The notes beneath the pieces were generated by a model. It worked only from the letters and a program-made list of their open reading frames with translations, was not told where the DNA came from and made no database searches. A stretch of DNA of 64,000 nucleotides, taken from Candidatus Zhuqueibacterota bacterium (GTDB lineage: Bacteria > Zhuqueibacterota > Zhuqueibacteria > Zhuqueibacterales > Geothermadaptataceae). The DNA is taken from NCBI GenBank assembly GCA_030950365.1, contig JAUZRQ010000091.1, positions 20,820 to 84,819 of the forward strand. The letters run 5' to 3'. A program made the translations under genes and the position numbers. Every line of letters begins with the position of its first letter. Within the stretch, counting starts at the first letter, position 1. Shown here piece after piece: positions 16,271 to 20,159 of this stretch.

Positions 16271-17540
16271 GCGCGGCCTCACTCACAGCAACGGGCTTGT
16301 TGGTGGGATTGTTTTTAGGCTGGTTGTTTCTGACGCCCGATAGCAGCTTCTCCCGGATCAGGATAAGCTCACTACGGTTCAGGCAAATTCGGTGCGGCAA
16401 AGGTCCATAACCACGACGGCGATCGTACCGACGGCGTTCGCCCCGACGACGCTCCACCCGCCGGCGCTCGTTCTGCATCGACAGGGTCTGCGGCTTGCGG
16501 AACAGCGCCGAAAACACGCCTTCCATCACCTGGATGCGGGAATTGCCGTTTTCAGGAAAAACTTTATATTTTTCCAGATACTCTTCGGTCATCACCATGT
16601 TCTTTAATGGTGCTTCCATCACCGCGCCCTTCTGAAACAGCCCCCGGAACAGCCGCAATGCTTTGATATCGTCAAACGCGCTCTGCTCGACAATGTCGAT
16701 GATGCGCTTGCGGCCATCGATCATAACCATGATTTGCTGTTCGTCTTTATTGATCTGCTGATTTTTTATGTCCGGCGCTTTCAGCACCACCGATTGCAGC
16801 GACGGCAACTCTTTGGAAAGCTGCTCCCACCGGTACAATCGGGTCACCCCTTCAGAAATCAGATCCGGCGTGTCCACAAAAATATTCCGCGTGCGGTCAT
16901 GCTCCATCATGGACACGGAGAACTGACCTTCATTCCAGGTGAACATGCGCAGTAGCGCGGCCCTGGCATCCAGGTTGTCCAACTCCGCATCGATCACCTC
17001 GCCCTGGGTGACATACACTTTGCCCTCGCGGCCGCCTTTTTGCAGGCGCAAAATGGCCGTCTTTTTGCCGACTTCCAGCGTCTGCAGCAAATCCACCAGC
17101 GACATCTCGGACAACGAGCCACTGAAGCCCGGAGTATTCACCCGGCTGGAATCTTGAACACTGTGCGCTTCTTTAATCAGAATTTCCAGCCGCGCCAGCA
17201 CTTCATCCACCTCGAACGGCTTGTACAGGAAATCATCCACATCCAATTCCAGCCAGCTTAGCCGTTCGTCAATGGAGCGTGGATGACTGGCAAACACGAT
17301 CGGAATGATTTTGGGAGACGCCGCTTCACGGAGTTGCGGCAGCACTTCGGCAGGGTCAAAATCGGGCAGACGGGGTTCTATAAGCACGAGGTCCGGACGC
17401 AAGCTCTCCAGATATGGCAGCAGATCGCCGGCGGTCTTGGCGATCCGCACTTCGTATCCTTCGGCAATAAGGCTCTTTCGGAGATCATGTATGTCATAAT
17501 CGAAATGATCCGCGATTAGTATTTTGCGTCGACCTTCCAT
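16257..17540 (-). CDS. Pseudo-receiver (Asp to Glu) plus PATAN/DUF4388-domain protein with Arg-rich C-terminal repeat
   Basis: REC fold with PDLVLIEPRLPDFD (Glu at the phospho-acceptor position) and KPF. DUF4388-like GSLSEMSLVDLLQTLEVGKKTAILRLQKGGREGKVYVTQGEVIDAEL. C-terminal ERRRVERRRGERRRYDRRRG. Confidence 0.7.
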   Translation of the reverse strand: MEGRRKILIADHFDYDIHDLRKSLIAEGYEVRIAKTAGDLLPYLESLRPDLVLIEPRLPDFDPAEVLPQLREAASPKIIPIVFASHPRSIDERLSWLELDVDDFLYKPFEVDEVLARLEILIKEAHSVQDSSRVNTPGFSGSLSEMSLVDLLQTLEVGKKTAILRLQKGGREGKVYVTQGEVIDAELDNLDARAALLRMFTWNEGQFSVSMMEHDRTRNIFVDTPDLISEGVTRLYRWEQLSKELPSLQSVVLKAPDIKNQQINKDEQQIMVMIDGRKRIIDIVEQSAFDDIKALRLFRGLFQKGAVMEAPLKNMVMTEEYLEKYKVFPENGNSRIQVMEGVFSALFRKPQTLSMQNERRRVERRRGERRRYDRRRGYGPLPHRICLNRSELILIREKLLSGVRNNQPKNNPTNKPVAVSEAAHANR

Positions 17541-17579
17541 CCTCTTGCTCTCGAGGTGCAGTCAAAGTTCTCCGCGCTT

Positions 17580-20159
17580 TCAGGTGTCATTTTTTTCCTG
17601 CCAGCGTCTTAAATTTTGATCCGCCAGCATGGCCTGCAAGAACTGAAGCATGCTGGTAGAATCATCTAGATCTACACTCTGGATCAGATCGAGCTTATCC
17701 GCACCGATCAAATCGCGCACGGTTTCCACTGAAAAGTTGCGCACGCCTTTGGACTCCACAAGGGCGATGGCAAACGGCTTTTTGTACTTTTTCTTCAGCG
17801 CATTATATAGGTAACTGACGTAATCTAAATTCGCGCGCGAATTCGCCTCGATCAGCAATGCATAGCCGGCGAAGCCATCGGCCAGGCTATCGAGAAGCTG
17901 GGTGAACTGTTGTTCCATGGAAACGCCCACGACCACCAGATTCTGATCACCCACTTCGCGCTCGCCCACGCCCAGATATTCGAAAACTTTGCTCTGGAAC
18001 TTCTGAATCGGCGCGTTTTCCAATACGAAGTTAGAGAATTTTTCGATGTATTCGATTTTGGCGCCAATGAGCACGAACTTGGCCGGCGGCGCCAGTGCCG
18101 TCTTGGCCAGCTTTTCCAGCAACCGCTCCAGCCGCTTCGACATTTCCGGCTCGAGTTTGGCCCCTGTCGGTTCAACCGTTTCGCCGCCTGGTTTGAAAAT
18201 ATGTTCGATATCTGGGAAATGGCCGGTGTCCTGCGGAATTTTAGGCAACCCGCGCCTGGGCAGCGTTTTGATCGGCCGGAACACCTGCGGCGCAGGTTCT
18301 GTGTTTTCTTGTACCGGCCTACCTGAGGAAGACTGTTTTGCTCCCGGCGGCTCGGACGGCTCCGAGCTCTCCGCGACGGTCGGCCGCTTTGATTCTGTCT
18401 GCGGTGGCTCATTCAGAGTATCGTCCGGTTTCAGCGTATCCACATCGATTTCGAAATGCCGTGCCATGGTCTCTTCCAGCTCGGTCTTATCAGGTTCCAC
18501 GGCAAAATTCACCCCCAGGTCGGGATTCTCGGCATTGGAATCGGATGTCGGAAGGGTGGGAATCAGAATTTCATCCGTTGGCTCATCATTATCCTGGCCA
18601 GGAACATCAGGCTCACTGGAAACATCGCCAAGTTTAAATTTGGCGATGGCTTCCAATATATCCAGGTCCGGCTTGAACGCCTTCATGCTCAACGGCTCAG
18701 GATAGATAAGCTGGTCTTGCGTGCTGTCCGTAAACGCCGGCGCTTCCATGCCATTGGAATGCAGCACATACTCGGCTTGCGCCTCATCGCGAACCGGTTC
18801 ATCGGTGAGTGCACTGCCGGGCTCTTCCATCGTCACGGTGTTGCCGTTGGAACCGGCCGTGCTGGCCGAGACATCCAGTGGCTCGTTTTCGGCCGTCGGT
18901 TCCGGCACAGGGTCGGCTGCGGATATGACGTCCGATGTCGGTTTCGGATGAGCTGCTTCTTTGGTGGCGGCGTTTTTGTCGGCCTGTGCTATTTTTTCAC
19001 CGCTGGCGGCCGGCCGGGCTTCTACCTCAGACCTTTGGCTGAGAACGTCGAGGCTATTCATATCTATATCATGAATATTAAATACGGCAGACGAACCGTT
19101 CTCTGGCGGCGGTTGCTGGTCACTGGTATCCGCGTCAACCGACGCTTGTTCTATCGGTCTATCTTTGTTCACATCGGCGATTTTGATTTCCGCTGGCTTC
19201 GCTTCGGCTGCGCTCCCCGGCTTGATGAATCCCTGCTGGTACAGCTTTACCAGCCGCTCCAGGGTCTTCAGATCATCGTACGAACTCTCGTCGATGATCT
19301 GCATGATGTCCCGCTTGCCGTCGATCAGCGTGAGAAATTTGGCGGCCTCGACACTCAATTCTTTTTTGCTCAAAATCTTGCGGAAATTGTCGGTCAGCAC
19401 ACACGTGGTTTCCGGCGACGGCAGCATCTTAAACAGCTTTTCGCGTTCTTCGATCCGTTTGAACCCGTGCAGCAGCAGCCCGAGATTGCTCACCGAAATG
19501 GTATCCTCAACCTGCACCTCTTTGAAAGTCATAATAAAATGGCCCCGCCGCCAGGGCAGCATTTGATAAACCGCTTTTTCTGCCTTGAGCGTGCCGAGAG
19601 TCGCATGCACCACCGCGCCATTGCGGAAATAGATTTCGCCGTTTTTGTTGTTTTCGTTATAAACGCTCAACACGCCGGACTTACGCTCCACGCCGAAATT
19701 TTCGATGAGATCGGCAACGCTGTACTCTTCCAGCCGGCCAACCAGCTTGCGCGTCGGCTCCACCTCTTCGTTGCGCATGCGTTCCATGCGCCGAAGTATC
19801 ATTCGAATGCGTGCGATCACTTCTTTGACATGCAGCGGCTTGATCATGTAATCTTTCACGCCACCGCGCAGACTGCGCACACGGTCCTGAATCTCACGGC
19901 GATTGGTCAGAAACATGATGGGAATGGCGGCGGTGGTCGGCTCCTGCTTAATCCGCTCCAATAGCTGAAAGCCGTCCAGCTTCGGAAGGCTCACTTCGGA
20001 AAGGATGAGGTCCGGGCGCTCGGTATAGACTTTCTCCCAGGCTTCCTGGCCGTCCACCGCAGCGAGGACAGTAAACCCGGAAGATTCGAGACCCTCTCGC
20101 AGAATTTGCAGATTTTTCGGGTCTGCATCAACAACAAGAATGACAGGATTTTCCATCAT
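17580..20159 (-). CDS. Pseudo-receiver (Asp to Glu), PATAN/DUF4388, about 330-aa acidic/Pro-rich disordered linker, C-terminal pseudo-GTPase domain
   Basis: REC fold with PDLILSEVSLPKLDG (Glu at the acceptor position). DUF4388-like GRLEEYSVADLIENFGVERKSGVLSVYNENNKNGEIYFRNGAVVHA. A long low-complexity D/E/P/S/T region. The C-terminus KFVLIGAKIEYIEKF...LVVVGVSMEQQF...FAIALVESKG is paralogous in layout to the 15791-16270 product. Confidence 0.7.
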   Translation of the reverse strand: MMENPVILVVDADPKNLQILREGLESSGFTVLAAVDGQEAWEKVYTERPDLILSEVSLPKLDGFQLLERIKQEPTTAAIPIMFLTNRREIQDRVRSLRGGVKDYMIKPLHVKEVIARIRMILRRMERMRNEEVEPTRKLVGRLEEYSVADLIENFGVERKSGVLSVYNENNKNGEIYFRNGAVVHATLGTLKAEKAVYQMLPWRRGHFIMTFKEVQVEDTISVSNLGLLLHGFKRIEEREKLFKMLPSPETTCVLTDNFRKILSKKELSVEAAKFLTLIDGKRDIMQIIDESSYDDLKTLERLVKLYQQGFIKPGSAAEAKPAEIKIADVNKDRPIEQASVDADTSDQQPPPENGSSAVFNIHDIDMNSLDVLSQRSEVEARPAASGEKIAQADKNAATKEAAHPKPTSDVISAADPVPEPTAENEPLDVSASTAGSNGNTVTMEEPGSALTDEPVRDEAQAEYVLHSNGMEAPAFTDSTQDQLIYPEPLSMKAFKPDLDILEAIAKFKLGDVSSEPDVPGQDNDEPTDEILIPTLPTSDSNAENPDLGVNFAVEPDKTELEETMARHFEIDVDTLKPDDTLNEPPQTESKRPTVAESSEPSEPPGAKQSSSGRPVQENTEPAPQVFRPIKTLPRRGLPKIPQDTGHFPDIEHIFKPGGETVEPTGAKLEPEMSKRLERLLEKLAKTALAPPAKFVLIGAKIEYIEKFSNFVLENAPIQKFQSKVFEYLGVGEREVGDQNLVVVGVSMEQQFTQLLDSLADGFAGYALLIEANSRANLDYVSYLYNALKKKYKKPFAIALVESKGVRNFSVETVRDLIGADKLDLIQSVDLDDSTSMLQFLQAMLADQNLRRWQEKNDT

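Follow-up and report, generated by a model that had tools for sequence, protein, structure and literature searches.

Two adjacent genes in the 64,000-nt stretch of DNA that we analysed (the window) each encode a receiver domain with Glu in place of the phospho-acceptor Asp. Judged from sequence and predicted fold, both domains are Glu-type pseudo-receivers, also called aspartate-less receivers (ALRs). Following PMC4395418 and PMC12632262, we mean by this a domain recognised as a receiver by a profile but missing the acceptor Asp or further catalytic residues, which is what we found in both proteins. Our preferred reading, which we hold with moderate confidence, is that these are kinase-independent pseudo-receivers whose active-like heterodimer would scaffold PATAN and pseudoGTPase domains.

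The features of the module and its surroundings are collected in Table 1. The long protein, which is 100% identical to a protein from a candidate division KSB1 MAG (P0089), starts with the receiver and PATAN (DUF4388) domains and continues with an acidic, Pro-rich linker of ~370 aa and a C-terminal Ras-like domain without a P-loop. The short protein is a paralogue of the N-terminal 312 residues of the long one (27% identity, E 1e-43) and the two are collinear up to residue 312; its PATAN domain is followed by an Arg-rich tail and a conserved C-terminal helix. The third gene encodes a free Ras-fold protein, and its ATG overlaps the 3' end of the short protein gene by 14 nt. The GC-rich hairpin and T-run that follow look like the operon terminator, and we think this likely from the sequence. 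A simple terminator scan did not return the hairpin, probably because the stem is bulged. This operon design (long REC-PATAN-linker-Ras-like protein, short REC-PATAN paralogue and free 159-aa Ras-like paralogue) is fixed in KSB1, Calditrichota-like and related uncultured bacteria. All members of these families come from uncultured organisms.

Table 1. Features of the module and its upstream neighbourhood, in window coordinates.
Feature	Position	Strand	Basis
Hairpin (GC-rich) and T-run, directly 3' of the 159-aa gene	15735..15770	minus	read from sequence
159-aa Ras-fold protein gene	15791..16270	minus	sequence, family alignment, AF2, Foldseek
Short protein gene (427 aa)	16257..17540	minus	ORF, Pfam, AF2
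Short protein receiver, residues 7-118	17187..17522	minus	Pfam, E 3.3e-12; AF2 secondary structure; Foldseek
Short protein acceptor position, E55 codon GAA	17376..17378	minus	alignments, AF2; Glu in 84/86 homologues
Long protein gene (859 aa)	17580..20159	minus	ORF and Pfam domains
Long protein C-terminal Ras-like domain (predicted pseudoGTPase), ~residues 693-846	17622..18083	minus	hhalign
Long protein PATAN (DUF4388/PatA_N) region, about residues 141-312	19224..19739	minus	Pfam PF14332, E 2.3e-16
Long protein receiver, residues 7-119	19803..20141	minus	Pfam PF00072, E 1e-24; alignments to PhoP and PleD
Long protein acceptor position, E55 codon GAA	19995..19997	minus	alignments; Glu in 119/120 homologues
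Long protein D11-A12 codons (acidic pair after beta1)	20124..20129	minus	alignment; Ala in place of the second, Mg-binding acid
86-aa ORF with HxxxCxxC motif, conserved upstream	20440..20700	minus	homologous ORFs also occupy this place in L001 and L006
376-aa protein, conserved upstream	20784..21914	minus	syntenic in L001, L003 and L006
Sigma-54-like -24/-12 element, TGGTATAGATTTTGCT	21962..21977	minus	48 nt upstream of the 376-aa gene
NtrC-type sigma-54 activator with canonical Asp receiver, conserved immediately upstream	22705..24081	minus	ORF, alignment

Both domains have the receiver fold. They score 87.3 bits (long) and 47.0 bits (short) against PF00072, for which the cut-off is 30.2 bits, and the AlphaFold2 model of the short protein has the five strand-helix units of a CheY-like (beta/alpha)5 fold. 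Foldseek superposes the short receiver on the OmpR/PhoB-family receivers KdpE, PhoP and YycF with an rmsd of ~2 A. The phmmer alignments to solved receivers are ungapped around the acceptor: PDLILSEVSLPKLDG aligns to PDLIVLDVMLPKLDG of B. subtilis PhoP, and PDLVLIEPRLPDFD aligns to PDLILLDLGLPDFD and to PDLILLDIMLP of YycF. When both proteins were aligned jointly with E. coli CheY in MAFFT, their E55 residues fell in the D57 column. The AlphaFold2 model agrees, with strand beta3 at residues 51-54 and E55 immediately after it, D11/H12 after beta1, S85 closing beta4 and K107 after beta5. A true receiver has Asp at the end of beta3 and both proteins have E55 there. The first-pass annotation had reported Glu at the acceptor position of both receivers, and the ungapped alignments, the predicted fold and a GAA codon at exactly the positions it gave all bear this out. 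It would have been wrong had a structure-based alignment placed a genuine Asp at the site, and our fold-based check finds none. An HMM scan detects six receivers in the window, and the other four (22705-24081, 55301-56767, 59715-60191 and 62955-63353) all have Asp by HMM scan and alignment, as first described.

Among relatives the site is not freely variable. Of 120 long-family homologues 119 retain Glu, as do 84 of 86 in the short family, down to ~32% identity, and the partner proteins at the more distant loci L006 and L007 have it too; rare relatives still carry Asp, or Asp together with a real P-loop. Because Glu is near-universal in both homologue sets, we do not think that it arose by chance. 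The source is a metagenome-assembled genome, so the Glu codons could in principle be artefacts of sequencing, assembly or alignment. We give this virtually no credence: a clean GAA is seen twice, the same Glu, encoded by GAA or GAG, recurs in over 200 independent homologues drawn from many samples, and the alignments contain no gaps at the site. The conservation of Glu had already ruled this explanation out.

The rest of the pocket is partly retained. Where a true receiver has an acidic pair for Mg2+ (CheY D12, D13), the long protein has D11-A12 and the short protein D11-H12, so the erosion of the pocket noted earlier concerns the second acid (the CheY D13 equivalent), while the first acid is kept. 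Across the families this second position is G/A/S (long) or K/N/H (short), non-acidic in both. Both proteins also keep the Thr/Ser at the end of beta4 and the Lys after beta5 that are expected of a true receiver (T85 and K107 in the long protein, S85 and K107 in the short). Of the 121 long-family members, at least 120 keep T85, and likewise Y104 and K107; K+2 is Leu or Val in all 121 (Leu in our long protein), D11 is kept in 120 and D13 in 118. The Lys is conserved in both families, but in the short family Gly occupies the Thr position (85) in 70 of 89 members. A Glu-Thr-Lys phosphomimic network is thus not general in the short family, and a simple phosphomimic reading is weaker there.

The first-pass annotation went on to call the receivers constitutively active-like, which we find plausible from these residues. 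T85/Y104/K107, Leu/Val at K+2 and the invariant salt-bridge residues described below lean towards an active-like, dimer-competent state, and A/I/L/V at K+2 are reported to push CheY towards active conformations (PMC12632262). Asp-to-Glu substitution is phosphomimetic in some regulators (NtrC) but insufficient by itself in CheY, PhoB and Spo0A, and ChxR remains active without its natural Glu (PMC4395418, PMC12632262). The receivers could instead be inert structural remnants, with Glu pairing with K107 for fold stability and the domains serving as passive spacers or oligomerisation modules that have no active-like state. Several observations fit this. In the wider superfamily 163 of 165 tips have an acid at the site, which alternates between D and E; a rough NJ tree requires at least 10 changes there, mostly D/E swaps. 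An Asp-bearing sister clade already lacks the second acid, so loss of pocket function may predate the arrival of Glu. The Thr is gone from the short family, and in typical ALR structures the first acid and the Lys make stabilising electrostatic contacts (PMC4395418). However, Glu and not Asp is fixed in the architecture that bears the Ras-like domain (154 of 158) although D and E are one base apart, and conservation of T85, Y104, K107 and the K+2 Leu in the long family equals that of the core, which implies constraint beyond what a passive scaffold needs. We therefore regard inert remnants as unlikely, if far from negligible.

The proposal that the receivers are phosphorylation-independent is well supported, since orthologues keep Glu and the fold offers no Asp. 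The absence of a cognate kinase from the module also stands: no HisKA/HATPase_c gene occurs within 36 kb of it in the window, or within 8-10 kb at five related loci (L001, L003, L005, L006 and L007). The sole histidine kinases in the window (56810-58003 and 60124-62064) are more than 36 kb off. Orphan regulators with distant kinases are common, and these two kinases might be taken as a sign that the receivers are ordinary ones that receive phosphate from a kinase encoded elsewhere, either at a different Asp or at the Glu itself. We consider this very improbable. The nearby acids (D50, together with D60/D62 in the short protein or D62 in the long) align with the 'PD' and 'DG' acids of canonical receivers, which are not acceptors, the pocket lacks its Mg-binding second acid, each of the two kinases adjoins a canonical receiver, and we know of no two-component system in which Glu is the phosphotransfer acceptor.

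The receivers might also still be switches that respond to another input, such as a metal or small ligand in the pocket (D11, D13, E55), Ser/Thr phosphorylation, Glu methylation or a regulatory partner. The near-invariance of D11 and D13 in the long family, the retained T, Y and K switch residues and the conserved 376-aa and 86-aa proteins upstream are compatible with this, and alternative modifications have been listed as possibilities for ALRs (PMC4395418). On the other side, the module shows no conserved Ser/Thr kinase, methyltransferase or ligand-binding domain among the five related loci compared, and methylation or phosphorylation of a Glu in a bacterial receiver is without precedent (PMC4395418). 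We think this explanation improbable.

The dimer face points to a partner for each receiver. The PhoB pairs D101-R115 and R91-E111 are conserved dimer contacts (PMC4511772), and across both families their equivalents D103, R117, R93 and E113 hardly vary, so that both have the OmpR/PhoB alpha4-beta5-alpha5 salt-bridge residues; the PhoB numbering is carried over from an equal-length match (query 7-128 against chain 5-126, offset +2) and not from a displayed residue-by-residue alignment. In 32 operon pairs, matched through the equal length of their source sequences, the long face presents R95/R98/K102/R119/R123/R124 and the short face presents D/E91, D102, E/D119 and E/D124. Because the salt-bridge residues are kept in both while the charge of the face is opposite (long basic, short acidic), these patterns suggest that the long and short receivers form an obligate heterodimer.

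The two Ras-like domains appear to have lost their switch as well. The C-terminal domain of the long protein matches the family of the 159-aa protein in hhalign (probability 98.4%, E 5e-15), and the AlphaFold2 model of the 159-aa protein (pLDDT 83) has the G-domain fold, with Foldseek matches to Rheb, Rab and Ras (E ~2e-8, TM ~0.7). Neither domain has a GxxxxGK[ST] P-loop (GANAEEER and GAKIEYIE take the place of G1), a G3 DxxG (TxxG in MglA; here HLYG) or a G4 [NT]KxD motif, and Pfam returned no GTPase family for them. Going by these motifs, we read both as probable pseudoGTPases. The two losses go together: of the 158 relatives that have a C-terminal Ras-like domain and whose acceptor can be read, 154 have Glu and lack a P-loop. 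A true P-loop is present in only two, and their acceptor residue is Asp or Lys, not Glu.

In our preferred reading of a kinase-independent heterodimer, both receivers would no longer accept a phosphoryl group from a histidine kinase. The Glu, the retained Thr/Tyr/Lys set and, in the long protein, the K+2 Leu would fix them in a dimer-competent, active-like state, and they would pair through an OmpR/PhoB-type alpha4-beta5-alpha5 face. The obligate heterodimer would then hold two PATAN output domains and two pseudoGTPase domains in one complex, controlled by expression or partner binding and not by phosphorylation. By analogy with cyanobacterial PatA-type regulators, the target would likely be a PilB/PilC-type secretion/pilus ATPase or a cell-polarity machine, although the tie to pilus ATPases is circumstantial.

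Glu-type pseudo-receivers are a common and already described class, with Glu accounting for 26% of ALRs, more than any other replacement (PMC4395418, PMC12632262). Exchanging the acceptor Asp for Glu is a frequent route by which receivers become independent of phosphorylation. Like C. trachomatis ChxR, the plant PRR/TOC1 clock proteins and ascomycete Rim15, our proteins have Glu for the acceptor Asp, a lost second acid, the first acid and the Lys kept, and no cognate kinase. They differ in their output, which is PATAN and Ras-like instead of DNA-binding or kinase, and in having two adjacent paralogous Glu receivers with complementary surface charge. The best sequence and fold matches, and the shared salt-bridge residues, are with the OmpR/PhoB family (PhoB, B. 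subtilis PhoP, YycF, KdpE, RpaA/RpaB). Unlike that family, the acceptor is Glu and the face is split into a basic and an acidic copy instead of being self-complementary. Pfam finds no winged-helix Trans_reg_C domain in either protein, so they do not have the OmpR/PhoB architecture, and all NCBIfam matches are confined to the receiver and far under their cut-offs.

The combination of PATAN and receiver is shared with cyanobacterial PatA-type regulators (PatA, PixG, PixE, LsiR). There PATAN has been demonstrated to serve as the output, binding PilB1 and PilC, and orphan members are thought to be phosphorylation-independent (bioRxiv 10.1101/2021.06.11.447907). Our proteins are not of the PatA type, in which PATAN is N-terminal; the order here is reversed, with the receiver at residues 7-119 and the PATAN match at 140-240, and there is a long disordered linker, a Ras-like C-terminal domain and no chemotaxis-like operon. 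MglA/MglB-type small GTPase polarity modules (Wuichet and Sogaard-Andersen 2014, PMC4316618) likewise link Ras-fold proteins genetically to PATAN-domain and receiver proteins, and Makarova 2006, as cited in PMC4316618, places them near PATAN genes. Compared with MglA, the Ras-like domains here lack the P-loop, DxxG/TxxG and NKxD, and one is fused to a REC-PATAN protein; no Roadblock/MglB partner was detected for the module and MglA gave no family-level sequence match. The pseudoGTPases p190RhoGAP pG1/pG2 and the AAGAB N-terminal domain share the G-domain fold with degenerate nucleotide motifs and act in protein-protein interaction (PMC5593906, PMC12490416), whereas here we predict a bacterial paralogue pair attached to pseudo-receivers.

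We find the degenerate Ras-like pair beside the Glu receivers less ordinary, and more notable, than the Glu itself. One module holds degenerate versions of two classic switches, the receiver and the Ras-like G domain, and is thereby a candidate for pseudoGTPase use in bacteria; the known link between PATAN and small GTPases is extended to poorly studied phyla (KSB1, Calditrichota-like). More speculatively, a REC(Asp)-PATAN-GTPase ancestor may have lost both phosphorylation and nucleotide switching to become a previously undescribed "double dead-switch" module: an obligate heteromeric scaffold of a polarised pseudo-receiver heterodimer and a pseudoGTPase pair that positions or regulates a pilus, secretion or polarity machine and is controlled only by abundance. 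We offer this fuller version tentatively and consider it rather doubtful. The REC(Asp)-PATAN-GTPase type is still present in rare relatives (P0273). According to a 2025 review, the activation and inactivation mechanisms of pseudo-receivers "remain a mystery" (PMC12632262), and for the bacterial ones this family offers a clean natural test set: Glu is fixed in ~150 diverged sequences, the long protein has Thr/Tyr/Lys and the OmpR/PhoB contacts intact, its paralogue lacks the Thr, and there are the rare relatives with Asp, or with Asp and a real P-loop.

For control by expression, the candidate route would be the conserved NtrC-type activator upstream together with the sigma-54-like promoter. 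Gene order around the activator is shared with L003 and L006. Membership of the module is uncertain for both the 86-aa ORF, which had no match in Pfam, and the 376-aa protein, which matched neither Pfam nor PDB. The tie of the module to the sigma-54-like promoter is circumstantial; -24/-12 elements of this kind are not enriched across the window, and similar ones lie at the equivalent intergenic spot in L003, L001 and L006.

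In both receivers of the operon, the phospho-acceptor aspartate is replaced by glutamate. When both are aligned jointly with E. coli CheY, E55 of the 859-aa (long) protein and E55 of the 427-aa (short) protein fall in the D57 column, the D13 column holds A12 (long) and H12 (short), T87 is matched by T85 and S85, respectively, and K109 by K107 in both. The codon is GAA in both genes (19995-19997 and 17376-17378). Misalignment of the acceptor can be ruled out. Against solved receivers, phmmer aligned PDLILSEVSLPKLDG to PDLIVLDVMLPKLDG of B. subtilis PhoP and PDLVLIEPRLPDFD to YycF PDLILLDIMLP, both ungapped near the acceptor, and in the AlphaFold2 model of the short protein (pLDDT 79 overall, >90 in the receiver) beta3 spans residues 51-54 with E55 immediately after it, so in this protein E55 is exactly the structural acceptor site. 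Foldseek superposes the same receiver on those of KdpE, PhoP and YycF at ~2 Å. A neighbouring aspartate is also ruled out as the real acceptor: D50, D60 and D62 sit at the "PD" and "DG" positions of canonical receivers. Six receivers were detected in the window by HMM scan, and the four besides these two carry Asp. The first-pass annotation, which had read from sequence alone a Glu at the acceptor, an eroded acidic pocket and Asp in the four other receivers, was thus correct in every detail.

The three genes are closely spaced on the minus strand, with a 14-nt overlap between the ATG of the 159-aa gene and the 3' end of the 427-aa gene, and a GC-rich hairpin with a T-run lies 3' of the 159-aa gene. 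A candidate division KSB1 metagenome-assembled genome encodes a protein with 100% identity to the long one. Pfam detects Response_reg at the N-terminus of both larger proteins (E 1e-24 in the long, E 3.3e-12 in the short), followed in both by DUF4388/PatA_N (the PATAN domain), and the two are paralogues across 310 residues (27% identity, E 1e-43), with E55 aligned to E55. A Foldseek search with the full 427-aa model gave no solved PATAN homologue, because its confident superpositions spanned the receiver only. Among long-protein homologues the linker is highly variable in length, and total length ranges from 530 to 990 aa.

Features of the operon and its surroundings (window coordinates)
Feature	Position	Strand	Remark
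159-aa Ras-fold protein gene	15791-16270	-	ORF
Short-protein gene, 427 aa	16257-17540	-	ORF
Short-protein C-terminal helix	16326-16376	-	LNRSELILIREKLL; after Arg-rich tail; kept across family
Short-protein Arg-rich tail	16407-16469	-	ERRRVERRRGERRRYDRRRG; kept across family
Short receiver, oppositely charged face	~17169-17270	-	receiver residues 91-124
Long-protein gene, 859 aa	17580-20159	-	ORF
Long-protein C-terminal Ras-like domain	~17622-18083	-
Long-protein linker	18100-19200	-	~370 residues; acidic, Pro-rich, low complexity
Long receiver, oppositely charged face	~19788-19889	-	receiver residues 91-124
86-aa ORF, unannotated-looking	20440-20700	-	HLLTCTRC (HxxxCxxC)
376-aa protein gene	20784-21914	-	kept beside module in several phylum-level relatives
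Sigma-54-like -24/-12 element	21962-21977	-	TGGTAT-N5-TTTGC; 48 nt upstream of 376-aa gene
NtrC-type activator gene	22705-24081
Response regulator with TackOD1 output	55301-56767	-
Histidine kinase	56810-58003
PilB/GspE-like (T2SSE/MshEN) ATPase	58013-59707	-	MshEN domain
Single-domain receiver	59715-60191
Histidine kinase	60124-62064

The glutamate at the acceptor is more than chance. It is kept in 119/120 long-family and 84/86 short-family database homologues, down to ~32% identity; Asp (P0093) and Ala (P0083) each occur once, and a distant Myxococcaceae protein is the third exception. Both GAA and GAG occur as the Glu codon among homologues, and this conservation rules out a sequencing error as the source of the residue. 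At the second pocket acid position we find G, A or S in the long family and K, N or H in the short family. Both families keep the Lys; the Thr is preserved in the long family, and Gly mostly takes its place in the short one.

Replacement of this kind is known. Glu is the commonest substitute (26%) in aspartate-less receivers, which typically keep the first acid, lose the second and keep the Lys (PMC4395418). The long and short proteins match that pattern in all three respects, and with their Glu they therefore belong to this described class. Natural Glu-type examples include ChxR, plant PRRs and Rim15; Asp-to-Glu is frequently insufficient for activation, and the Glu of ChxR is dispensable (PMC4395418, PMC12632262).

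The first-pass annotation had suggested that these receivers are phosphorylation-independent or constitutively active-like, and noted that the module encodes no cognate kinase. Its interpretation is partly supported: the well-supported part is phosphorylation independence, because the acceptor and the metal-binding acid are lost and no kinase is linked. The only two histidine kinases in the window lie elsewhere, each adjoining a canonical receiver, and in each of five related loci the module has no kinase within 8-10 kb.

As to the state of the receivers, T85, Y104 and K107 are retained in the long family, and K+2 is Leu or Val in 121/121 of its sequences; this residue class has been linked to active-like CheY conformations (PMC12632262). 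Both families keep equivalents of the PhoB pairs D101-R115 and R91-E111, which form dimer contacts in OmpR/PhoB receivers when these are activated (PMC4511772). Across 32 operon pairs, the alpha4-beta5-alpha5 face of the long receiver is uniformly basic (R95, R98, K102, R119, R123, R124) and that of the short receiver acidic (D/E91, D102, E/D119, E/D124; in the window protein D91, D102, D103, E119 and E124). The two receivers may form a constitutive heterodimer through this face, and its control would then lie in abundance or in partners. Residues that are candidates for contacts between paired receivers hardly vary, and the sole informative case of covariation is a single pair with K102Q in the long protein and E124A in the short.

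Neither the 159-aa protein nor the C-terminal domain of the long protein matches a Pfam or NCBIfam family, even when hits up to E 10 are admitted. The 159-aa model (pLDDT 83) matches structures of Rheb, Rab and Ras (E ~2e-8, TM ~0.7). Its helix 1 begins two residues past strand 1, so the model has no phosphate-binding loop, and the family lacks G1 (GANAEEER in the window protein), G3 (replaced by an invariant HLYG) and G4. By hhalign (98.4%, E 5e-15), the ~160 C-terminal residues of the long protein are homologous to the 159-aa protein, and they likewise lack a P-loop. With P-loop, DxxG and NKxD missing from both paralogous domains, we regard them as candidate bacterial pseudoGTPases, and the operon thus encodes two copies of a pseudo-receiver-PATAN plus pseudoGTPase unit, one fused and one split.

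An exhaustive profile-free homologue search yielded 2,110 cluster representatives at E <=1e-30. Among the 246 long homologues that we examined, Glu occurs together with a P-loop-less C-terminal Ras-like domain in 154; another 70 have Asp and no Ras-like domain, and their C-termini are Pro-rich or transmembrane (one is annotated Polyangiaceae). A genuine P-loop (GxxxxGKS) occurs in just two of the proteins that carry a Ras-like domain, and both lack Glu at the acceptor: the receiver of P0273 is fully canonical (DD/D/T/K), and that of P0258 shows Lys at this position. The P0273 operon has the gene order of the module, and its partner receiver is also Asp. The G domain of a P-loop-bearing relative returned only noise against PDB sequences (SAR1 at E ~1) and so gave no assignment to a GTPase subfamily. 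A rough neighbour-joining tree, too crude to separate single from repeated Glu gain or P-loop loss, requires at least ten changes at the acceptor site. Most are D/E swaps, so the position is held acidic across the superfamily and as Glu specifically in this architecture. In the literature that we searched on DUF4388/PATAN, aspartate-less receivers and bacterial pseudoGTPases, we found no description of a REC(Glu)-PATAN/Ras-like family and no account of Glu pseudo-receivers paired with degenerate G domains. This pairing is the part worth pursuing.

Synteny around the module is broad: LpxB, LpxK, an NtrC-type activator, a ~370-aa protein, a small HxxxCxxC ORF, the module and Peptidase_MA_2. Directly downstream of the activator gene lies a sigma-54-like element, and three related loci have one in the corresponding intergenic position (L003 5412-5427, L006 5859-5874, L001 4996-5011). 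The consensus is not enriched window-wide (37 found vs 42.6 expected); its conserved placement upstream of the 376-aa gene, shared by the four loci, is all that is suggestive. The 376-aa and 86-aa proteins have no Pfam or PDB match. The HxxxCxxC of the latter is reminiscent of zinc anti-sigma factors, and its counterparts are a 94-aa protein in L001 and the N-terminus of a 214-aa protein in L006. In three loci of distant relatives the module is followed by a fourth gene, small and Cys-rich (118-135 aa; L005 11293-11700, L006 12092-12448, L007 12135-12530). By tblastn it is absent from the window; there the interval from the module to Peptidase_MA_2 contains genes for cystathionine beta-synthase and gamma-lyase instead.

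In cyanobacterial PatA-type regulators PATAN is the demonstrated output domain, with PilB1 and PilC as binding partners (10.1101/2021.06.11.447907), and genes for PATAN proteins are known to lie next to MglA/MglB genes (PMC4316618). By analogy with these, a pilus, secretion or polarity machine is a reasonable guess for the target of the module. Since PATAN domains bind PilB in cyanobacteria, the PilB/GspE-like ATPase ~38 kb from the module is a possible target. It is flanked by the single-domain receiver and the two histidine kinases, and beyond this cluster are an HDOD protein, a CheY-like receiver and a SpoIIE phosphatase. The response regulator at 55301-56767 carries the output domain TackOD1 ("Thaumarchaeal output domain 1"), here in a bacterial genome.
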